From NCBI GenBank assembly GCA_965261395.1, contig OZ253462.1, positions 4,448,001 through 4,512,000 of the forward strand: a DNA stretch of 64,000 nucleotides, written 5' to 3'. Every line of letters starts with the position of its first letter. The first letter of the stretch is position 1. The notes beneath the pieces are model-generated. The model saw nothing but the letters and a program-made list of their open reading frames with translations, was not told the DNA's origin and searched no databases. The position numbers and the translations under genes are program-made. Origin of the DNA: Candidatus Latescibacterota bacterium (GTDB taxonomy: Bacteria > Latescibacterota > UBA2968 > UBA8231). This document shows positions 1,914 to 11,372 of this stretch, one piece after another.

Positions 1914-2050
1914 GGTGCTAGTCTCCAATGGTTTGACCGTCCACACGCATTCCCCTAGGCGTTGCGCACAAGACGGGAATTTAATGGTACGCGAAAGATG
2001 GATATGGAGAGGGGCACCCACGCACTAAGCAGCTTACAAGCGTGGATGCA

Positions 2051-2365
2051 CTAGCACCGGGGCGGGCCTCGGTTGAGATGGGTAAAGCGAGGAGAAAAAA
2101 GGGGTAACGGTACTGTGCGCAGAGCGGACGGACTTGGCTCAGAGGCATTCAGCGCCACGAGCACGAGCGCCAAGCCCCCAAAAAGGAGCGATAGACCGCT
2201 CTGCAACAGGTAGGCCGGGCAGTGCTCAGGCTCGACGAGGCTCTCGTGGAAAAGCTGGTGGCTGAAGGGCAGGCCGCATAAAACAGCCACAAAGAGCACT
2301 GTCAGCGCCAGCAGGGCCAGCGAGTACACCGAGCCTATCGGGATGTCCGTTTTGCGCGTTAGCAT
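2051..2365 (-). CDS. Small membrane protein ending in RGPP; DUF2946/CruR-like putative leader (arrest) peptide
   Basis: N-terminal hydrophobic helix, HQLFH...EHCP, Pro-rich tail ending NRGPPRC; first ORF after a sigma70-like promoter. Confidence 0.6.
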   Translation of the reverse strand: MLTRKTDIPIGSVYSLALLALTVLFVAVLCGLPFSHQLFHESLVEPEHCPAYLLQSGLSLLFGGLALVLVALNASEPSPSALRTVPLPLFSPRFTHLNRGPPRC

Positions 2366-2378
2366 GACCTTGGATTTT

Positions 2379-2406
2379 AGTATAGCGGTCCCCCTACAAA
2401 AAGCAA
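2379..2406 (-). promoter_or_regulatory. sigma70-like promoter of the leader-lipoprotein-TBDR operon
   Basis: TTGCTT (2406-2401), 16 bp spacer, TATACT (2384-2379) on the minus strand. Confidence 0.5.
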
Positions 2407-2603: not shown

Positions 2604-3896
2604 ATGTTTGCTGCTAAATCATCTAGCAGGTACGTCTTCCCATTCTTGCTACTGGCCCTTTCAGCAGGGCTAATTCCTCTGGAACGCGCACACGCCGAGG
2701 GTATGTCGCGGATCAATGCTATCCGCTTGGTCGTCGAGCGCAATCCGGCCGTGGAAGCCGCCCGCAATGTCTATGAAGCCGCCCGCGCCCAAGCACAGCA
2801 GGCCGGTGCCCTACCCGATCCAGAGCTAGAGGTGGAGTTCGCAGAGGTCCCCGAGCTGGGCAGCTTGAGTGAGTATGGCGAGCGCACGATCGAACTCAGC
2901 CAACGGGTTGAATTGCCGCTGAAGTGGTGGCACCGCCTCCAAGCCGGTCGCCAGCAAGCCGAAGCGACTCGTCTCGCCGTCTTCGAGATGACCAAGCTCG
3001 ATATAACTCTCCAAGCAAAGCAGGCTTACGACCGCATCGCCCTGCAAAAGTCCCTTCTCCAGCACGCCCAGCAAGACCTCGACTTAGCGCAGAATATCCT
3101 GCGCCAAGCCGACATTCGTTTCGAAGCGGGCGATGTGCCCCAATTGGATGTCATGCGGGCCAGCGTCGAAGTCGGCCGAGCTACCAATCGCTTGACTGCG
3201 GCGAAAAACGATCTATCCGTGGCCAAGACCTCGCTCAATGCTCTCCTAGCCCGGCCGCTGCAAACTCCATTCGCGCTAGCTGACAGTTTGGTCTATCGGC
3301 CCGTTGAGACTCACCTCGACCAATTGACCGCAGCAGCCCTAAAGCAACGGCCCGATTTGGCGGGAACCGAACTGCAGCTAAAAGCCCTACAGAGCCAGCA
3401 GGCGGCAGCAACGGCGGCCTATTGGCCGGATCTGAATGTGGGTTTGAGTCGCCAACAGCGGCATGAAGGTGGAGGCCACGAGGAAAATTCCTGGCAGGTG
3501 CGTTTCGGCATAGAGATACCGCTGTGGGCCTTTTCCCGCCAGCGCAGTGAACGCGCCGAAGCCAAGGCCGAAGTAGCCAAAGTCGTAGCCGAACGCGATG
3601 TGGTGCGCTATCAAGTCCTTTTGGAAACAGAACAGGCCTATCTGGACCTCAATACCGCCGAAGAACAAGTGGCCTTGTTCCAAGACCAAATTCTACCCGA
3701 GGCAGAACGGGCATTCGAGGTGGCCGGCCGCAGCTACGACGAAGGCAAATTGACCTATCTGGAACTGCTCGAAGCCCAGCGCACTTGGATCGAGACGCAG
3801 ATAGAATACGCCCAGGTCCTGTTCAAGTATCGCGCGGCCACGGCTGCGTTGGAACGGGCCATTGCTGGTCCCCTGTCCGCTAATTCTGGAGAATGA
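2604..3896 (+). CDS. czcC: TolC/CzcC-family outer membrane efflux protein
   Basis: Signal peptide, OEP repeats (ALPDPEL, YDEGKLTYLELLEAQR), first gene of an RND triplet. Confidence 0.88.
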   Translation: MFAAKSSSRYVFPFLLLALSAGLIPLERAHAEGMSRINAIRLVVERNPAVEAARNVYEAARAQAQQAGALPDPELEVEFAEVPELGSLSEYGERTIELSQRVELPLKWWHRLQAGRQQAEATRLAVFEMTKLDITLQAKQAYDRIALQKSLLQHAQQDLDLAQNILRQADIRFEAGDVPQLDVMRASVEVGRATNRLTAAKNDLSVAKTSLNALLARPLQTPFALADSLVYRPVETHLDQLTAAALKQRPDLAGTELQLKALQSQQAAATAAYWPDLNVGLSRQQRHEGGGHEENSWQVRFGIEIPLWAFSRQRSERAEAKAEVAKVVAERDVVRYQVLLETEQAYLDLNTAEEQVALFQDQILPEAERAFEVAGRSYDEGKLTYLELLEAQRTWIETQIEYAQVLFKYRAATAALERAIAGPLSANSGE

Positions 3897-5086
3897 AAAT
3901 GCGTATCTACACGACGAGCTTGGGAATTATTGGTCTGCTGACAGCTCTCTTCGCGCTAGGAGATAGTGCGGACTTTTCTTTTTGGAACCAGCCGGTTTGG
4001 GCTGCCGAGGAGGATCACGAGGAGGAGGAAGGGCTACAGTTGAGCACGGCGGAACGGACTGAATTTGGCATCGAGGTCGCCCAAGCGGCTGCGGGCCAGT
4101 TGGCAATTCAGGTGCATACGCCTGGAGAGGTGCAGGTCAATCCCGATTTGCTGGCTCACATCGTGCCTCGCGTAGCGGGAGTGGCTCGCCAGATCCACGC
4201 CAATATCGGCGATCAAGTTCAGCAAGACCAAGTGCTGGCCGTTTTGGAAAGCCAAGAGCTGTCCGAACTGATATCGGCCTATTTAGTAGCCCAGGAGCGT
4301 TTGGAACTGGCCCAGGCAACCTTTGACCGAGAAGAAACGCTGTGGAACCAATCCATCTCTTCGGAGCGGGTTTTTCTCGAGGCCAAAACCAAGCTGGCCG
4401 AAGCGCGTATTGACCTGCGAGTAGCCAAACAAAAACTCCTCGCGCTGGGCTTTGCGGCCGCCTATCTCGAAAAGCTGTCCTTCGACAACGACAATCGCTT
4501 TACCCGCTACGAAATAAGGGCCCCCTTCACCGGGACCATCATCTACAAACACATAACCCAAGGCGAAGTGCTCAAGGACGATTCCGAAGCCTTCGTGGTG
4601 GCCGATCTGCGTTCAGTTTGGGTCTTATTGACGGCTTATCAGAAAGACTTGCCCTTCCTGCGCATCGGCCAACCCGTCCACATCAAAGCCAGTCAAGGCG
4701 GCCCTGAGACCACGGGGACCGTAGACTATATCAGCCCCATCATAAGCGAGGCGCTGCGGACGGCTTCGATCCGCGTGGAGCTCTCCAACCCGGACGGCCA
4801 ATGGCGGCCCGGCTCCTTTGTCACGGCCACGATCGATGTAGAGGGCGTCGCTGTGCCTCTCTTGGTGCCCCGATCGGCTATCCAGATGGTGGATGACCAC
4901 TCCGTCGTCTTCATGGAGACCGACGAGGGATTTGTGCCCCAGCCCGTCCAGATCGGCCGCACCAACCCCACTCATGCCGAGATTCTCTCCGGGTTAGAGG
5001 TGGGACAGCCTTACGTCGCCCAAGGGGCCTTCATCCTGAAAGCCCAGTTGGCCAAAGGCGCTTTCGGGGATGGCCACGCCCATTAA
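3893..5086 (+). CDS. czcB: CzcB/CusB-family RND periplasmic adaptor
   Basis: IRAPFTGTI, VADLRSVWV, WRPGSFV and C-terminal GHAH; ATGA overlap with czcC. Confidence 0.9.
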   Translation: MKMRIYTTSLGIIGLLTALFALGDSADFSFWNQPVWAAEEDHEEEEGLQLSTAERTEFGIEVAQAAAGQLAIQVHTPGEVQVNPDLLAHIVPRVAGVARQIHANIGDQVQQDQVLAVLESQELSELISAYLVAQERLELAQATFDREETLWNQSISSERVFLEAKTKLAEARIDLRVAKQKLLALGFAAAYLEKLSFDNDNRFTRYEIRAPFTGTIIYKHITQGEVLKDDSEAFVVADLRSVWVLLTAYQKDLPFLRIGQPVHIKASQGGPETTGTVDYISPIISEALRTASIRVELSNPDGQWRPGSFVTATIDVEGVAVPLLVPRSAIQMVDDHSVVFMETDEGFVPQPVQIGRTNPTHAEILSGLEVGQPYVAQGAFILKAQLAKGAFGDGHAH

Positions 5087-5107
5087 CCAGCGGAGAGGAT
5101 AGACCTG

Positions 5108-8100
5108 ATGATTGACCGCATTATTCAGCTAGCGTTGAACAACCGGTTGCTCATGCTGGTTTTGGGAGCAGTGGTCGTGGTGAGTGGTTATTACAGCTAT
5201 CGGCAGTTGCCCGTCGATGCCTTTCCCGATGTCTCGCCCAACCTAGTCCAGGTATTCACCGTCACCGAGGGCTTGGCTCCCGAAGAAATCGAAACCTACG
5301 TCACCTATCCCATCGAGACGGTGATGAACGGCCTGCCGAGCATCGAGAACATCCGCTCCGTGTCCAACTTCGGCCTCTCGGTCGTCAATATCTACTTTGC
5401 AGACGGAATAGACATCTACTTTGCCCGCCAGTTGGTCAACGAACGACTCCAAGAGGCCCGGGAACAGATCCCGGAGGGCTTTGGCGAACCCGCGCTGGGG
5501 CCGATTTCGACCGGCATGGGCTTGGTGCTGTTCTACTATCTCGAAGACACCACCGGCGAGCACTCGCTCGAAGAGCTGCGCACCATCCAGGATTGGTTGG
5601 TCAAATTCCACCTGCAAACCGTGCCTGGGGTCACCGAGATTTTGGGCATCGGCGGCTATGAGAAACAGTTCCACGTCGTGGTCGATCCCCACGCCTTGCT
5701 GCGCTACGGGGTGACGCTGCACAATGTCATCGAACAGATTGAAGCCAACAATCTCAACGTCGGTGCCCAGTTCATTGAAAAGGACGCCGAGGAATACGTC
5801 GTGCGCTCAGTGGGTCTGGCCTCTACGGTCGAGGATATCGAAAACATCGTCATCAAGGCCGGTGGCGGAACGCCCATCTTTCTCAACCAAGTAGCCGAGG
5901 TGGACATTGGCGGGGCCATCCGGCGCGGCGTGCAGACTCGCAACGGCGTGGAAGAAGTAGTGGCCGGCATGGTGATAAAGCTCTTCGGCACCAATTCCTC
6001 GACCGTGATCGAGCGGGTTGAAGCCAAGATGGAAGAGCTCAATCGCATCTTGCCCGCCGGGGTGCGCCTAGTACCCTACTACGAGCAAAAGACCTTGGTG
6101 GCGGCCTGCGTGGCCACGGTCACCAATGCCTTGATTCAGGGCATTGTCCTAGTCACACTCGTGTTGGTCCTCTTCATGGGTAGCGTCCGACCCAGCCTAG
6201 TAGTAGCCCTGTCCATTCCCTTTTCAGTGCTGTTTGCTACCCTCGGCATGCACTACTTCGGCCTCTCGGCCAACCTCATGTCCCTCGGCGGCTTGGCCAT
6301 CGCCATCGGCATGATGGTGGACGGCACCATTGTCGTGGTCGAAAACGTGGACCGCATCCTGCGCCAAGCCGAACCGGACGAGGGACGCATCCAGGTCGTA
6401 GCCCGCGCCTGCGTGGAAGTCGGCCGTCCCATCGTCTTCGCCATCGCCATCATCATTCTCGTATTCCTCCCCTTGTTTACCCTGCAAGGGGTAGAGGGCA
6501 AAACCTTCCGCCCTCTAGCCTACACTGTGGCCATGGCCATGTTGGGCTCGTTGATTTTTGCCCTGTTCCTGGCCCCGGTGTTGTCGAACCTGCTGCTGCG
6601 GGCACCAAAATCCGGGCGCGAAGGCACCCAAGCCAGCGAAGGCTGGATGATGCGTCGCTTGGTGGCCGCGTATCGACCCATTGTCACTCGCTTCGTCGCC
6701 CACCGCTTTTGGGCACTCGGCTCAGCGGGCATCCTCCTGCTCATCGGGCTGGTGATTTTTCCGCGCCTCGGATCGGAGTTTACCCCGGCCCTGCAGGAAG
6801 GCACCCTAGTCCTGCGGCTGACCATGGCCCCCTCCATCTCGCTCAAGGAAAGCACCCGCCTCACCATGCTAGTCGAGCGCCGTCTATTGCAGATCCCCGA
6901 AGTTACCGGCGCGGTTTCGCGCATCGGTCGCGGCGAAGTCGGCGCTCATACCGACCCCATCAACAACGCCGAGATGTTTCTCCTGCTCAAGCATAGGGAC
7001 CAGTGGCGCACGGCCCGCGACCAAGAAGAGTTGCGCGAGATCATTCGCGCCGAGTTGGGGGAAATTCCCGGTGTGCTGACCAACTTCACCCAACCCATTG
7101 CCATGACTGTGGATGAATTGCTCGAAGGGGTGCGGGCCGAACTGGCGGTCAAGCTCTTTGGGGATGATCTGGACGTGTTAAAACAGAAGGCCGACGAAAT
7201 CGCCCAAGTGGTCAACGCGGTTGCTGGGGCGGCCGATGTCCAAGTGGACCAAATAAGCGGCACGCCCCAGCTACTCATCCGGGTGGACCGACAGGCCATT
7301 GCCCGCTACGGCGTCAATGTGGCCGATGTGCAAAAGGTGGTGCAGGCAGCCGTGGGCGGCGAGACGGTGGGACAAGTGTTTGAAGGAACGCGCCGCTTCG
7401 ACATTGTGGTGCGCTTCGCCCCGCAATTTCGCAGCAGCCCCGAGGCCATTGCCCAAATTTTGGTCCAGTCCCCCAAGGGCGTCCAGCTCCCGCTGGTTCA
7501 GCTAGCCCAGATCGAAGAAGTGGTCGGGCCGCGCCAAATCACCCGCGAAAAGAGCCAGCGCTTCATCACGGTTCAGTGCAATGTCACCGACCGGGATATT
7601 GGCTCCTTTGTCGCGGACGCGCAAAAGGCCATTGCAGACCAAGTGGACCTGCCGCCGGGTTATCTGGTGACCTGGGGCGGCCAGTTCCGCCTGCAGCAAG
7701 AAGCCAACAAGCGGCTGGCCATCGTCGTGCCCATTACCCTCTTCGTGCTCTTCTTGCTGTTGTTTTCCAGCTTCAATTCGCTTAAAAACGCGACCCTTAT
7801 CTTGCTCAATATCCCGCTGGCGCTGGTGGGCGGAGTGGTGGCTTTGTGGCTGACCGGACAAAACCTGTCCGTGCCGTCCTCGGTCGGTTTCATCGCTCTG
7901 TTCGGCATTGCCCTGGAAAACAGCATGGTGCTGGTGACCTACTTCAACCAGCTCGTCCGCGATGGCGTGGACCTCGATGAAGCTTCCATCCAAGGGGCCT
8001 GTCTGCGGGTGCGGCCGGTGCTGATGACCGCCCTGACGACGGCCCTTGGGCTGCTTCCGCTGCTGTTTTCCAGCGGCACCGGCAGCGAAGTACAACGACC

Positions 8101-8248
8101 GCTAGCTACGGTAGTCGTCGGAGGCTTGGTCAGCTCCACCGTGTTGACTTTGCTGGTACTGCCGGCGCTCTACAAGTGGTTTGCTGTGCAACTGAATCAC
8201 GGAGAAGCAGAAGCGCTATTGGCGGAACGGGAAGAAGTGACCTTCTAA
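5108..8248 (+). CDS. czcA: CzcA/CusA-family heavy-metal RND efflux transporter
   Basis: LPVDAFPDVS, MSLGGLAIAIGMMVDGTIVVVEN, RPVLMTA and GSEVQRPLATVVVGGL; 1046 aa. Confidence 0.95.
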   Translation: MIDRIIQLALNNRLLMLVLGAVVVVSGYYSYRQLPVDAFPDVSPNLVQVFTVTEGLAPEEIETYVTYPIETVMNGLPSIENIRSVSNFGLSVVNIYFADGIDIYFARQLVNERLQEAREQIPEGFGEPALGPISTGMGLVLFYYLEDTTGEHSLEELRTIQDWLVKFHLQTVPGVTEILGIGGYEKQFHVVVDPHALLRYGVTLHNVIEQIEANNLNVGAQFIEKDAEEYVVRSVGLASTVEDIENIVIKAGGGTPIFLNQVAEVDIGGAIRRGVQTRNGVEEVVAGMVIKLFGTNSSTVIERVEAKMEELNRILPAGVRLVPYYEQKTLVAACVATVTNALIQGIVLVTLVLVLFMGSVRPSLVVALSIPFSVLFATLGMHYFGLSANLMSLGGLAIAIGMMVDGTIVVVENVDRILRQAEPDEGRIQVVARACVEVGRPIVFAIAIIILVFLPLFTLQGVEGKTFRPLAYTVAMAMLGSLIFALFLAPVLSNLLLRAPKSGREGTQASEGWMMRRLVAAYRPIVTRFVAHRFWALGSAGILLLIGLVIFPRLGSEFTPALQEGTLVLRLTMAPSISLKESTRLTMLVERRLLQIPEVTGAVSRIGRGEVGAHTDPINNAEMFLLLKHRDQWRTARDQEELREIIRAELGEIPGVLTNFTQPIAMTVDELLEGVRAELAVKLFGDDLDVLKQKADEIAQVVNAVAGAADVQVDQISGTPQLLIRVDRQAIARYGVNVADVQKVVQAAVGGETVGQVFEGTRRFDIVVRFAPQFRSSPEAIAQILVQSPKGVQLPLVQLAQIEEVVGPRQITREKSQRFITVQCNVTDRDIGSFVADAQKAIADQVDLPPGYLVTWGGQFRLQQEANKRLAIVVPITLFVLFLLLFSSFNSLKNATLILLNIPLALVGGVVALWLTGQNLSVPSSVGFIALFGIALENSMVLVTYFNQLVRDGVDLDEASIQGACLRVRPVLMTALTTALGLLPLLFSSGTGSEVQRPLATVVVGGLVSSTVLTLLVLPALYKWFAVQLNHGEAEALLAEREEVTF

Positions 8249-8362
8249 TCAGGGCGTCTCGACCAAAATTTCGGCCCAGCGCCGTCTATAGCCTTATTCT
8301 TATATTTATAGCATTATAAGAGTCTTGTCGCCTTATCCCAATGATGCCCAGGAGGCTATTGA

Positions 8363-9598
8363 GTGACCTTTGAATTTCTTGGGATATTGACCAGTTTTTT
8401 CGACTTCCTCTGGTCATCCTTCCTGTTGCTAGCGCCCATGCTGTTGCTGGGGCTATTCCTTTCCGGCCTGATTCATGTGTTCATCTCCCGCCAGGCCATA
8501 CTCCGCTGGCTCCGCGACGACAGTCTAAAATCCGTAACCACAAGTTCGGCCATCGGCGTGCCCGTGCCGCTGTGTAGTTGTTCGGTCGTGCCGGTAGTCG
8601 CTGAGATGCGCCGGAAGGGCGCGTCCCGTTCGGCCTGCATGTCCTTCCTGATAACTGCGCCGGAAACAGGCGCGGACTCAATTCTAGTCACCAATGCGTT
8701 CTTCGGATTCGTCGTTGCCATTGTCCGGCCCGTCATCAGCTTCATCACCGCGGTCGTCGCCGGGATCTTTTGCATTGGCCTCATAAAAGACGACCGCGAC
8801 GAAGCCAAGGCGAGCGACCCCGACCACTGCCATGACTGTGAGCACGATCATGGCGCGCACCAATCCCTCATAGCTGATAGAGATGATTGCTACGTCAATC
8901 CCTCGCAATTGAAGGTGTTATTAGTCAACTGGTTGAAGGGAAATGCCACCAGCGATCCTTCTCCGGGCGATGTCTCCACAGACGATCAGGGTCTGGACTT
9001 CAAGAAGCTGGTCAAGCACGTCTTTCGCTATGGCTTCATTGAGATAGCGGACGACATTCTCTTTGCGCTGCTGGTGGGCGTTGCCTTGGGAGGAGTGCTT
9101 TTTCTGGCGATTCCAAGCGACCTGATGTCAAATGAGTATGCCCGCTGGCTATCCTATCCGATCATGGTGCTGATCGGCATTCCCCTCTATATCTGCGCTT
9201 CCGCCAGTACCCCGATCGCCGCCGCACTAGTTGCCAAGGGAGTCAGCCCCGGTGCGGCGCTGATTTTCCTCATGACCGGACCAGCCACCAATACGGGCAC
9301 CATCGCGATCATCGTCAGTCAGTTCGGCACTCGCTTCGCGTCCATCTACGTCGTCGCAGTCATCGCGGTTACGGTCATTCTCGGCATCGCCATCGACGCG
9401 CTGCTTCTGGCCGCTGGTCTGACAATTTCCGTGAACCTCGACGCCTCCCATTCGCCGGCTATTCAACTCCTGCAATGGGGAAGCGCTTTGCTCCTCATCG
9501 CTCTGATCGTCTGGCGCTTTCGGGCCGGTGCCCTGCGCAACGGCTACGAGGATATGCTGTTCAATCTTCGTTTCCGGTCCAGCACTAGCGACCGGTGA
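8363..9598 (+). CDS. DUF318/ArsP-like permease (SO_0444-type metal transporter)
   Basis: PLCSCSVVP, PLYICASASTP, His/Cys loop HCHDCEHDHGAH; AGGAGG RBS before GTG. Confidence 0.85.
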   Translation: MTFEFLGILTSFFDFLWSSFLLLAPMLLLGLFLSGLIHVFISRQAILRWLRDDSLKSVTTSSAIGVPVPLCSCSVVPVVAEMRRKGASRSACMSFLITAPETGADSILVTNAFFGFVVAIVRPVISFITAVVAGIFCIGLIKDDRDEAKASDPDHCHDCEHDHGAHQSLIADRDDCYVNPSQLKVLLVNWLKGNATSDPSPGDVSTDDQGLDFKKLVKHVFRYGFIEIADDILFALLVGVALGGVLFLAIPSDLMSNEYARWLSYPIMVLIGIPLYICASASTPIAAALVAKGVSPGAALIFLMTGPATNTGTIAIIVSQFGTRFASIYVVAVIAVTVILGIAIDALLLAAGLTISVNLDASHSPAIQLLQWGSALLLIALIVWRFRAGALRNGYEDMLFNLRFRSSTSDR

Positions 9599-9675
9599 GG
9601 GGACCCCTGATCCGCAGTCGTTTCTTGCGGGGCATCATCTTCCCACCACACCAATCGGTCCACTTCTTCCCGTAT

Positions 9676-10257
9676 CTACGTTTCTGATCCCAGAAACTGC
9701 CGGATGTACTCGCCTTTCGGTGTTAGCTGGGTAGAGACGTCGATCACATTGGGCACTTTATCCATTATCTTTTCACGGATCTGTTTAACGACGACGTACC
9801 CTTCTGCTACTGTGAGCTCTGGGTCGGTTTCCGCCGTTAATTCAACATACAGGGCCCCACCCATGGACCGGATGCGAATATTGTGGGTAAATGTTACGCC
9901 TGCTACCTCTTCCGCCATCTCTTCGATTAGGGCTATCGTCTCTAGCGAAGGAGCGAAATCTATCAACTCTTTGACCGCTGTTGCTCCCAACTTCCCAAGC
10001 ACTGTGCAGGATCAAACCCGCGATCACGACCGTGGTGACCGGATTAATCAACGAGAAGGCCGGAAAATAGGAGGAAATGAACTACCCCGCCGCAAGCAGC
10101 GGGGTATCGAGTTAGTAGCCCGAGAGCGCCGCAAGCGGCGGGGTATTAAACCCGAATGAGAAATAAAAATGCTCAGCAGGACTGCCAAGGCGCTGATGGC
10201 AGTAGCTTCCTGAAGTCTCTGTTTTTCATTTGGTTCTGCGTGCGCGTGCATGTGCAT
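9676..10257 (-). pseudogene. Degraded cation diffusion facilitator (FieF-like)
   Basis: GGAGG plus MHMHAHAEP start; TM1-4 apparently deleted; TM5/6 split by an 86-bp insertion; +1 frameshift near 9985; intact C-terminal dimerisation domain (HNIRIRSMGGALYVEL...DPELTVAEG). Confidence 0.8.
10079..10164. mobile_element. 86-bp non-autonomous hairpin element (IS200/IS605-end-like or REP-like MITE)
   Basis: Two GC hairpins; 19/20 direct repeat CGCCGCAAGCRGCGGGGTAT at 10088 and 10127; GAAAT at 10074-78 and 10160-64; excision restores the CDF frame LLSIFISSYFP. Confidence 0.75.
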
Positions 10258-10443
10258 ACTGCTTAACCTCCTGTACAATGCCGTAGGCGACAGCTCATAC
10301 GACTTCTGGGTGGCGATCGGGGGCCGGCAGCGCGGGACCTCAGCAGTGGCAGGTACTGAGGTCAACCACGACTTTGTATATAATACTCGCACCTAACAAG
10401 GTCGCGTGGTGCAACACACAACCCGACATCGCCAAGGGGAAAA

Positions 10444-10457
10444 GCAATGATGTTGCA
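10444..10457. promoter_or_regulatory. Putative Zur/Fur-family operator upstream of the ZIP gene
   Basis: GCAATGATGTTGCA, a near match to the TGCAAC-N3-GTTGCA palindrome type, about 50 bp before the ZIP start. Confidence 0.4.
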
Positions 10458-10505
10458 GGAAACCGCGATCGCCGGCTGCCCAGCTAGTTTCCGGTTATAG
10501 CCATC

Positions 10506-11372
10506 ATGGATTCAAACGCTCTACTGGTTTTGTCGGCCTACTCAGCCGCTATCTTTGCCGCTTCCCTTCTCGGCGGGAAATTGGCGGCCTTGGGTACCAT
10601 GACGCATACGCGTACTCAGGTCGTGATGAGTCTTGTGGCCGGCTTCATCCTCGGCATCGCCATGTTTCACCTGCTACCCCACAGCCTCAATCGCATTCCC
10701 GGGCCTGACATGGTAGAAAAAACCGTGGGATGGATGGTCTTAGGCATGGTCCTGATGATTTTCTTACTGCGTATCTTTCACTTTCATCAGCATGACTTCA
10801 GCAGCGAGGCGAGCGATCTGTACGATCAACACGACCACGGTAGTTCCGGCATCCATTCTCGGAGTTTGTTCGGCGTTGCCATCGGCCTAGGAGTGCACAC
10901 CGTGACCGAAGGGATCGCGCTGGGCACTAGCATGAAGATGGGGCCGCCGCATGAAAACGACGTCGCCTTGGCGGGCTTAGGAGTATTCTTCGCCATTCTG
11001 CTGCACAAGCCGCTCGATGCGTACTCCATTATCGGCATGATGAAGTCCGCCGGGCACAGCCAGCGCGCCCGGACATTGGCCAATGTCGGATTTGCCATGC
11101 TGTGCCCTTTGGTGGCCCTGGCAAGCTTTGGGGGTGTGGAATTGCTTGGCTCGGAAGAAGGGGCGGTGGTCGGCTATGTGCTGTCTTTTGCGGCGGGCGC
11201 GTTCTTGTGCATTGCCTTGAGCGACCTGCTGCCGGAGATCCATTTCCACAGCCACGATCGCGGCAAGCTCATCGCATCCCTGCTCGTGGGCATCGGTCTC
11301 GCCTACGCACTGTATTACGTTGAATCCAGCGCCATCCACGGACATGGGATGGAGACGCACATAGGGCATTAG
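10506..11372 (+). CDS. ZIP family divalent metal transporter
   Basis: HLLPH, GVHTVTEGIALG, AILLHKPLD, SDLLPEIHFH and a His-rich loop. Confidence 0.92.
   Translation: MDSNALLVLSAYSAAIFAASLLGGKLAALGTMTHTRTQVVMSLVAGFILGIAMFHLLPHSLNRIPGPDMVEKTVGWMVLGMVLMIFLLRIFHFHQHDFSSEASDLYDQHDHGSSGIHSRSLFGVAIGLGVHTVTEGIALGTSMKMGPPHENDVALAGLGVFFAILLHKPLDAYSIIGMMKSAGHSQRARTLANVGFAMLCPLVALASFGGVELLGSEEGAVVGYVLSFAAGAFLCIALSDLLPEIHFHSHDRGKLIASLLVGIGLAYALYYVESSAIHGHGMETHIGH

Follow-up and report, generated by a model that had tools for sequence, protein, structure and literature searches.

A candidate metal-sensing arrest peptide of the CruR/CutF kind upstream of a lipoprotein gene and a TonB-dependent receptor gene

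INTRODUCTION

CruR (Bp2923) of Bordetella pertussis, a DUF2946 protein whose target is a TonB transporter, carries a CXXC motif and a RAPP motif that lie 45 residues apart, a spacing conserved to within 1 to 2 residues; copper relieves the ribosome arrest, and Rho then terminates transcription (PMC9426467). This arrest has been shown in vitro by toeprinting, with the third and fourth RAPP codons in the P and A sites of the ribosome (PMC12992588). CutF of Rhodobacter capsulatus, likewise a DUF2946 protein, combines CxxxC with PPP (PMC9973294; bioRxiv 10.1101/2025.02.05.636593). Here, we describe an upstream open reading frame (uORF) encoding 104 amino acids (aa) on the minus strand of a 64,000-nucleotide (nt) stretch of contig OZ253462.1 (positions 4,448,001 to 4,512,000; assembly GCA_965261395.1, Candidatus Latescibacterota bacterium), hereafter called the window, in which the uORF is followed by genes for a His-rich lipoprotein and a TonB-dependent receptor. 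Comparison with CruR and CutF suggests that the uORF is most likely a metal-sensing switch of the same type.

Arrangements of this kind are described more widely. Clusters of CutF-like proteins whose motifs are Cys, His, or mixed and whose neighbors are TonB-like come mostly from Pseudomonadota and Bacteroidota (PMC9973294), uORFs ending in RAPP or RGPP are reported to be enriched upstream of TonB receptors and to be widespread across Gram-negative phyla (PMC12992588, Fujiwara et al. 2025), and the Zur-dependent expression set of Caulobacter includes DUF2946 genes, one of which heads czrCBA (PMC4176598). The main texts of the arrest-peptide and DUF2946 literature searched contain no mention of Gemmatimonad*, their supplementary lists, which may include the present family, lying outside that search; in PMC9973294, “Gemmatimonad” has 0 occurrences. 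An initial annotation of the window, made from its letters, had proposed a metal-sensing arrest peptide that controls a TonB uptake operon. This interpretation is supported as far as computation goes, and what the annotation said of CruR and of RAPP/RGPP peptides agrees with PMC9426467 and PMC12992588.

RESULTS

A conserved uORF with invariant His, Cys, and Pro residues

The uORF ending in NRGPPRC, a spacer of 137 nt up to the lipoprotein ATG, the lipoprotein gene, and the receptor gene are all present in this order, as the initial annotation had listed them, and all lie on the minus strand, which it had left unstated (Table 1). Full-length homologues of the uORF product occur in 19 of the 24 genomes of the same genus (62 to 90% identity, E ≤ 1.3e-30), and the same search, over 16 genomes of other genera, returned no uORF homologue. 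A profile of 27 copies matched 27 representative proteins at E ≤ 1e-3 among 1.84 billion, and a scan of 168 genomes of the phylum placed the family in 53 of them (own taxonomic family, 50 of 75; a second family, 2 of 13; others, 0). The sources name the family members as Gemmatimonadota, which places the organism in that phylum, and two remote relatives as Latescibacteria. Across 8 pairs, dN/dS ranged from 0.16 to 0.65 and, for the more diverged pairs, was lowest in the loop of residues 33 to 52; at the invariant residues, synonymous codons vary. Judged by these comparisons, the uORF is a real, conserved coding gene.

Family members share a layout in which segment 1 is followed by LP-x-x-H-x3-H ... 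E-P-x-x-C-P-x-[Y/C/H]-L-L-Q, and then by segment 2, a variable tail, R-[G/A/P]-P-P, about 2 residues, and the stop. The initial annotation had described a single hydrophobic helix; a hydrophobic segment is indeed present, but there are two of them rather than one (residues ~12 to 32 and 53 to 73). Segment 1 is hydrophobic in every aligned homologue, and the LLQ/LLE at the start of segment 2 is conserved. The pattern H-x3-H ... H-C and the Pro-rich tail are likewise as that annotation had reported them, with H36-x3-H40 and H48-C49 located in the loop between the two segments. By the positive-inside rule, basic residues before segment 1 and in the tail, together with acidic residues in the loop, fit a predicted topology of N-in, loop-out, and C-in.

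In an alignment that reaches down to 23% identity, H36, C49, P101, and P102 are invariant, and P33, H40, and R99 are kept at ≥90%. More specifically, [RK]xPP lies near the C terminus (≤15 residues from the end) in 118 of the 126 retrieved family proteins (RGPP 89, RAPP 26, RPPP 1, KRPP 1, and KAPP 1), with exactly 2 residues after PP in 103 of the 118; the 8 proteins that lack it include a 348-aa probable false match and apparently truncated or frame-shifted products. The conservation of RGPP and of the His/Cys residues in homologous loci, on which the initial annotation had staked its proposal, is thus found. The distance from Cys to Arg is 50, equivalent to 46 intervening residues, in 105 of the 118 proteins and 48 to 52 in 116 of them, and the fourth residue of the CxxX motif is Y in 56, C in 37, H in 14, and another residue in 11. 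Among orthologues, G100 is replaced by A or P with R..PP retained, and the last 16 residues, in which RGPP takes up positions 99 to 102 of 104, contain 10 of the 29 positions that are invariant within the genus. An R[AGP]PP motif near the end of an ORF is by itself unremarkable, because 45 of the 38,279 six-frame ORFs (50 to 250 aa) of the same genome have one in their last 10 residues; the window uORF is the only one of these 45 with a transmembrane (TM)-like segment. The initial annotation had also proposed a His-liganded variant lacking CxxC. The window copy does have CPAY and no CxxC, but the first Cys of the CxxX motif is invariant, so the putative metal site would be mixed His/Cys rather than His only.

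Table 1. Positions of the features discussed, in window coordinates unless a locus of a relative is given.
Feature	Position	Strand	Description
Promoter-like element	2374-2412	minus	TTGAAT 2412-2407, TTGCTT 2406-2401, TATACT 2384-2379, overlapping TAAAAT 2379-2374
uORF	2051-2365	minus	104 aa, MLTRKTD...NRGPPRC*, stop codon 2051-2053; DUF2946-like (CruR/CutF-like) candidate arrest peptide
Hydrophobic segment 1	2270-2332	minus	Follows R4 and K5; predicted signal-anchor or TM1 (Kyte-Doolittle scan)
Sensor loop (putative)	2210-2269	minus	Residues 33-52, LPFSHQLFHESLVEPEHCPAY; H36, H40, H48, C49, with CPAY at the CxxC-equivalent position
Hydrophobic segment 2	2147-2209	minus	Between sensor loop and arrest tail (Kyte-Doolittle scan)
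RGPP codons	2060-2071	minus	R99 G100 P101 P102; P101 2063-2065, P102 2060-2062
Outer helix, 5' strand	2050-2058	minus	GGUGCUAGU; last two sense codons in part, stop, and one extra base; pairs with 1914-1922
Hairpin 1	2014-2049	minus	GCAUCCACGC - loop - GCGUGGGUGC, directly 3' of the stop; 10 pairs, 2 with compensatory changes
Anti-SD, 5' strand of inner helix	2005-2010	minus	UCUCCA, pairs with UGGAGA 1922-1927
Hairpin 2	1937-1976 (approximate)	minus	In spacer; 7 pairs, 2 with compensatory changes
Lipoprotein initiation region	1914-1927	minus	UGGAGACUAGCACC; SD GGAG 1923-1926; 3' strands of inner and outer helices
Lipoprotein gene	1410-1913	minus	167 aa, signal peptide, lipobox IASC, 10 His, acidic
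TonB-dependent receptor gene	1-1407	minus	N-terminal 469 aa inside the window; gene runs past the window start
czcC-like outer-membrane factor	2604-3896	plus	OEP in Pfam
Two long ORFs, 397 and 1046 aa	3893-5086, 5108-8248	plus	From the ORF list only
ArsP_1-type permease	8363-9598	plus	His/Cys/Asp-rich loop; Pfam
ZIP transporter	10506-11372	plus	Pfam
Duplicated modules	L010:2945-4901, L011, L012, L014-L020, L026		In relatives, not in the window

A conserved RNA structure around the lipoprotein start

An RNAalifold consensus from 25 distinct copies of one genus comprises four elements, namely, an outer helix, hairpin 1, an inner helix that pairs with the Shine-Dalgarno (SD) sequence and is therefore called the anti-SD helix, and hairpin 2. 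The outer helix pairs GGUGCUA(GU) with (AC)UAGCACC (2058-2050 with 1922-1914), and the energy of its duplex, -21.0 kcal/mol, is equalled by 2 of 300 dinucleotide shuffles and by 0 of 240 windows from the uORF body. Over the consensus structure, 98.2% of cells are paired versus 29 to 52% with slid partners, and 6 pairs show compensatory changes versus 1.5 ± 1.1 in shuffles (0 of 500 reach 6). One such pair lies in the outer helix, where CGC (Arg) replaces UGC (Cys) as the last uORF codon and G replaces A in the lipoprotein leader; the base pair is therefore kept where the amino acid is not. Most bases of the 5' strand of this helix are tied to the coding of R103, C104, or the stop, and residues 103 and 104 vary among family members. 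Likewise, 100% of the cells of the anti-SD helix are paired in the 25 copies, and it holds no informative covariation. In the free mRNA, the whole lipoprotein initiation region would be closed by the outer and anti-SD helices together, because the stop region of the uORF complements the bases before the AUG and the anti-SD complements the SD.

The same layout recurs in other genera. There, CCUGAGCAU in the stop region pairs with AUGCUCAGG, which comprises the lipoprotein start codon and the bases that follow it; next come a hairpin, GCAUCCGCAC...GUGCGGAUGC, at the place of hairpin 1 but of different sequence, and an anti-SD pairing, GUUCUCC:GGAGAAC. In loci of the second family, the SD itself is the partner of the last uORF codons (AUACUCCUG:CAGGAGUAU and CACUCCU:AGGAGUG). 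Duplex energies were matched by ≤11 of 300 dinucleotide shuffles in 12 of 17 loci. A search of positions 1700 to 2700 against Rfam returned no family match at E ≤ 1, and no known riboswitch therefore explains the spacer.

Within the uORF itself, a small hairpin of 5 base pairs (bp) lies at ~2067-2092 on the minus strand, just 5' of the Pro-Pro codons (CCUCG...CGAGG, including the R99-G100 codons), and one of its pairs shows compensatory changes in 3 of the 25 copies.

Proposed mechanism

On balance, we think it probable that the product of the 104-aa ORF senses metal in cis, in the manner of the DUF2946-like peptides CruR and CutF, and gates the lipoprotein and receptor genes. As with RAPP/RGPP peptides and CruR, the ribosome would arrest when Pro101 occupies the P site and Pro102 the A site. 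Counted from the P101 codon (2065-2063) in the P site, positions +7 to +15 coincide exactly with 2058-2050, the 5' strand of the outer helix. By the usual extent of a ribosome footprint, the mRNA channel of the arrested ribosome would cover that strand, which would leave only the 6-bp anti-SD helix, closing a loop of ~80 nt. With only this helix remaining, the lipoprotein gene would be translated, and the receptor gene, whose start lies 2 nt past the lipoprotein stop, would follow by coupling (the ON state). If the exported His/His/Cys loop binds metal during the insertion of segment 2, an extra pull or folding may release the arrest; the ribosome would then terminate, the helix would re-form, and the uptake genes would be off. 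Scarce metal would thus correspond to ON and sufficient metal to OFF.

Relation to DUF2946

We read the uORF family as a divergent branch of DUF2946 in which the window copy has probably lost the second Cys of CxxC. In the DUF2946 search that the initial annotation had suggested, the window protein has no match to the profile (PF11162, gathering threshold 23.7 bits) at E ≤ 1, whereas a paralogue from the same genus, P0110, reaches 25.7 bits in an alignment to profile positions 3 to 117; P0110 is 76% identical to the window protein and contains CPAC and an insert rich in His. Two remote members, P0021 and P0007, give sub-threshold, co-linear, end-anchored matches in which the Cys motif and the RAPP end fall at profile positions 51/53-117, and tandem paralogues in relatives have CPAC. 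Among the 27 aligned members, 5 match DUF2946 weakly (best E 0.0025), more than match any other family, and 0 of the 27 reach the cut-off; PF11162 likewise has no match above its cut-off in the genome itself or in 81 genomes of the phylum. A precomputed PF11162 annotation is attached to 1 of 105 database matches, and the nearest named ESM Atlas clusters, which are a lead only, have PF11162 in 50% and 24% of their members.

Synteny and duplicated modules

The uORF, lipoprotein, and receptor genes follow one another in 19 of 19 same-genus loci, as far as the contigs reach. Of 20 further loci from other genera and the second family, where identity drops to 29 to 31%, 17 have a lipoprotein homologue as the next gene, and 18 have a same-strand receptor homologue downstream, which in one locus is a fragment and in two is ~5 kilobases away; one more contig ends too early. 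The location of such uORFs upstream of orthologous TonB operons, as suggested by the initial annotation, therefore holds beyond the window.

The uORF-lipoprotein module is duplicated in tandem in 12 of the 19 same-genus loci, giving the order uORF-lipoprotein-uORF-lipoprotein-receptor; in one of them, L013, the second lipoprotein gene is fragmented. Copy 2 of the uORF encodes CPAC, a true CxxC, and an extra Cys39 and His43, and in some genomes its sensor loop is extended by a (SHE/SHG)n insert, rich in His and variable in length. A single module is found in the window and in 5 other loci, the window module being of the copy-1 (CPAY) type. In several relatives, a long GC-rich hairpin lies after lipoprotein copy 1 and before uORF copy 2 (L010:3890-3991 and equivalents); a terminator scan of L010 did not call this hairpin.

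Promoter and transcription

The initial annotation had placed a promoter before the uORF. A conserved promoter-like element does lie there, but a sigma-70 consensus scan of the minus strand (1300-2700) found no promoter before the uORF, and the same scan found none in the spacer, where an independent promoter would have spoken against that annotation's proposal. TTGCTT and TATACT are separated by 16 nt, and the promoter-like element ends 8 nt before the uORF ATG (2365). A hexamer of the TANNNT type 8 nt before the ATG, together with an upstream TTG..., is kept in nearly all copies of the relatives (L009-L027), the internal ones included, and between the promoter-like element and the ATG there is no conserved SD. 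Because of this hexamer and the lack of a conserved SD, we suggest that the uORF mRNA may be leaderless or nearly so. No operator-like inverted repeat was found at 2340-2620.

Metatranscriptome contigs from 4 runs of one study cover 2060-2404 and 2062-2330 (uORF) and 1575-1944 (5' part of the lipoprotein gene), and none covers 1945-2059. They come from relatives 90 to 97% alike, show no RNA ends, strand, level, or ribosome positions, and may reflect DNA carry-over. We did not use these contigs as support for co-transcription, processing, or a stall site; their ends near 2060 may be a repeat branch, because the relatives carry two copies. In addition, a 34-nt stretch (2243-2276, sensor-loop codons) is matched with 3 mismatches by metatranscriptome contigs of 71-102x coverage that are unlike the sequence on both sides, maybe by chance or from a distant, highly expressed relative.

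The lipoprotein, the receptor, and the neighboring genes

The lipoprotein has no Pfam or NCBIfam family match. Five His residues (H35, H110, H119, H136, and H139) and several acidic ones stay unchanged even in homologues of 29% identity, and the protein is a candidate metal-binding partner of the receptor. Its AlphaFold2 model (pLDDT 83) has Ig-like or Big_2-like domains (beta sandwich) as top PDB matches, and the fold search, which returned such generic domains only, gave no hint of a ligand; the lipoprotein of the second family has two such domains. The receptor gene, complete in the genome, encodes 739 aa. Among NCBIfam models, ZnuD scores best (176.7 bits, cut-off 950), followed by heme receptors (132.9) and the copper receptor (80.3), and the receptor belongs to none of the ZnuD, heme, and copper equivalogs.

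A metal-homeostasis gene group adjoins the locus on the plus strand (2604-11372), upstream of the uORF and divergent from it. Unlike Caulobacter czrCBA, the czcC-like gene of this group has no DUF2946-like ORF in front.

DISCUSSION

Which metal, and how far the proposal goes

The His-rich ligands, the ZnuD-like receptor, the His-rich lipoprotein with its five invariant His, and the Zn-type neighbors point to zinc, or another borderline divalent metal, as a likelier ligand than Cu(I). Taken together, these features can be combined into a fuller reading, which we put forward tentatively and rate as doubtful in its entirety: a non-copper, most likely zinc, arrest-peptide sensor, the first of its kind, in which an invariant His/His/Cys site would be periplasmic between two membrane segments, metal binding would be coupled to the insertion of segment 2, and the resulting force on the RGPP arrest would gate a ribosome-binding site (RBS) helix that uses the uORF stop region; in relatives, the paralogous CPAY and CPAC sensors, each with its own lipoprotein, would discriminate two metals.

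Several points weigh against the proposal of a metal-sensing, cis-acting peptide. Stalling, metal binding, and regulation are all argued from comparison, and the sign assigned to the metal effect is a physiological guess (metal releases CruR and stalls CutF). Zinc is weakly supported, since the ZnuD score of the receptor is far below its cut-off (176.7 versus 950). PF11162 leaves the window protein unmatched also among the matches of its own genome at E ≤ 10, and this copy lacks the second Cys of CxxC (C49-P-A-Y52). Regarding the RNA, the compensatory pairs were counted on the same alignment that gave the structure, its 25 copies are kin, and the fold of the single window sequence is modest against shuffles (z = -1.77). 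The duplex is no better than shuffles in 5 of the 17 loci (L024, 19/300; L025, 173/300; L039, 28/300; L047, 75/300; and L054, 35/300), and because the tested loci are related, the independent lineages number about five. In the second-family loci, moreover, an arrested ribosome would contain only the first 4 of ~9 paired bases. One contig from a relative's RNA library extends 39 nt upstream of the ATG, which, if it is RNA at all, misfits a leaderless start. Finally, any terminating ribosome would briefly open such a helix, and plain translational coupling would need the same structure.

Alternative explanations

The same sensor peptide could act through transcription. In this unlikely alternative, the arrested ribosome would bar Rho from a rut site formed by the uORF end and the spacer, release would lead to termination before the lipoprotein gene, and the RNA structure would have a subordinate role. 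Such a mechanism operates in CruR, the one member studied ahead of a TonB transporter gene, which has a similarly long spacer of 162 nt (PMC9426467); a scan of the spacer found no intrinsic-terminator-like site, and C-rich, G-poor tracts, which are not diagnostic, are present (C/G 2.5 to 3.0 at 2135-2046 and 2.9 at 2015-1956). However, Pro codons account for the C-richness at the end of the uORF, the spacer is mostly paired in the conserved model, the conserved feature is a sequestered initiation region, and Rho dependence cannot be revealed by sequence alone. Rho-dependent termination and RBS unmasking are compatible with each other as outputs.

A simpler account, which we regard as quite improbable, is constitutive translational coupling without metal sensing: a terminating ribosome, slow because delayed at RGPP, would open the lipoprotein start on a leaderless or nearly leaderless mRNA, and the His/Cys loop would serve another purpose or none. 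Coupling would require just such a closed initiation region, with its 5' strand at the uORF stop, and the absence of a conserved SD before the uORF and of a regulator-like inverted repeat upstream fits it as well. Yet H36 and C49 are invariant and the RxPP spacing is fixed across proteins with just 23 to 30% identity, the dN/dS of the loop is lowest in the more diverged pairs, and the paralogues differ precisely at ligand residues and in His-rich inserts, so a ligand-binding role is hard to avoid.

It is likewise very doubtful that the uORF encodes a stable metal-binding protein that crosses the inner membrane twice and acts in trans with the lipoprotein and the receptor (e.g., as an uptake relay or partner), its RGPP being non-regulatory: the two conserved hydrophobic segments, purifying selection over the full length, duplication of the uORF along with the lipoprotein gene in 12 of the 19 same-genus loci, and CzcI-type DUF2946 relatives that lack a Pro motif and are presumed to function as proteins (PMC9973294) all agree with it, but RxPP stays two residues from the stop in 103 of the 126 proteins while its surroundings diverge, RAPP/RGPP is reportedly strongly avoided in proteomes except in arrest peptides (PMC12992588), and the Cys-to-Arg change of the last codon is accompanied by a compensating base in the lipoprotein leader. 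Roles in trans and in cis could coexist.

Significance

The cis-acting sensor peptide is the reading we prefer. To our knowledge, metal control through a nascent chain has been shown experimentally for copper only, in two Pseudomonadota proteins, CruR and CutF. The kind of system is thus already known; what is new here is the mixed His/Cys ligand set, the second membrane segment, the lipoprotein as first target, the RBS helix formed from the uORF's own stop region, and the duplicated modules with differing ligand sets. The principle would extend to Gemmatimonadota, of which few members have been cultured, to the remote relatives that the sources name Latescibacteria, and to a ZnuD-like receptor with a His-rich lipoprotein partner. 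Standard Pfam annotation misses the mixed His/Cys sensor, and every named family member is consequently labelled “hypothetical protein”. A CruR-type target would here be joined with a CutF-type RNA switch in a geometry that is testable base by base, and the duplicated modules with their different ligand residues offer a natural comparison for metal specificity. Should the sensed ion prove to be zinc, or any ion other than copper, metal homeostasis through arrest-peptide sensing would be shown to be general.

Comparison with known systems

In the SecM-secA and MifM-yidC2 systems, the arrested ribosome opens a structure that hides the downstream RBS, and pulling on the nascent chain in the course of export or insertion releases the arrest, a principle that the locus described here would share. 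Unlike the present peptide, SecM and MifM sense translocon or insertase activity, have no metal ligand, and use other arrest sequences. ApdA, ApdP, ApcA, and the products of the RAPP/RGPP classes of uORFs are likewise small secreted or membrane proteins with R-A/G-P-P near the C terminus, encoded ahead of the gene under regulation; the Apd and Apc peptides monitor Sec/YidC activity and not metals. Members of the TonB class are reported to have mostly signal peptides (PMC12992588), in contrast to the two hydrophobic segments found here.

The comparison with CutF bears chiefly on the RNA switch. CutF is a sensor peptide exported during translation, with its metal motif on the periplasmic side and a Pro motif at the C terminus, and its stall unfolds mRNA structure that masks the SD of the following gene; the present uORF product would share these features and would act likewise. 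CutF is EF-P dependent, and copper induces its stall, turning a detoxifying oxidase ON, whereas the present uORF ends in RGPP, which is reportedly EF-P refractory, and metal is expected to release the stall because the targets are uptake genes. A further difference is that the 5' strand of the shielding helix is here the uORF's own stop region.

CruR provides the comparison for the target. It differs in sensing copper through CXXC, whereas the present loop has H-x3-H ... C-P-A-Y with an invariant Cys and the second Cys replaced; in its output, which is Rho-dependent termination rather than a conserved structure predicted to close the RBS of the next gene; in the next gene, here a lipoprotein gene and not the receptor gene; in the second hydrophobic segment, which here lies between sensor and arrest motif; and in lineage, CruR coming from Pseudomonadota and the present family from Gemmatimonadota, with a window protein under the Pfam threshold. 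What the two have in common is a small uORF product, exported or membrane-targeted, with a metal motif and with R-A/G-P-P 2 to 3 residues before the stop, a motif spacing of 45 residues in CruR versus 46 here, a long spacer of 162 versus 137 nt, and, downstream, an operon for a TonB-dependent transporter whose uptake genes would be expected to be OFF with metal.

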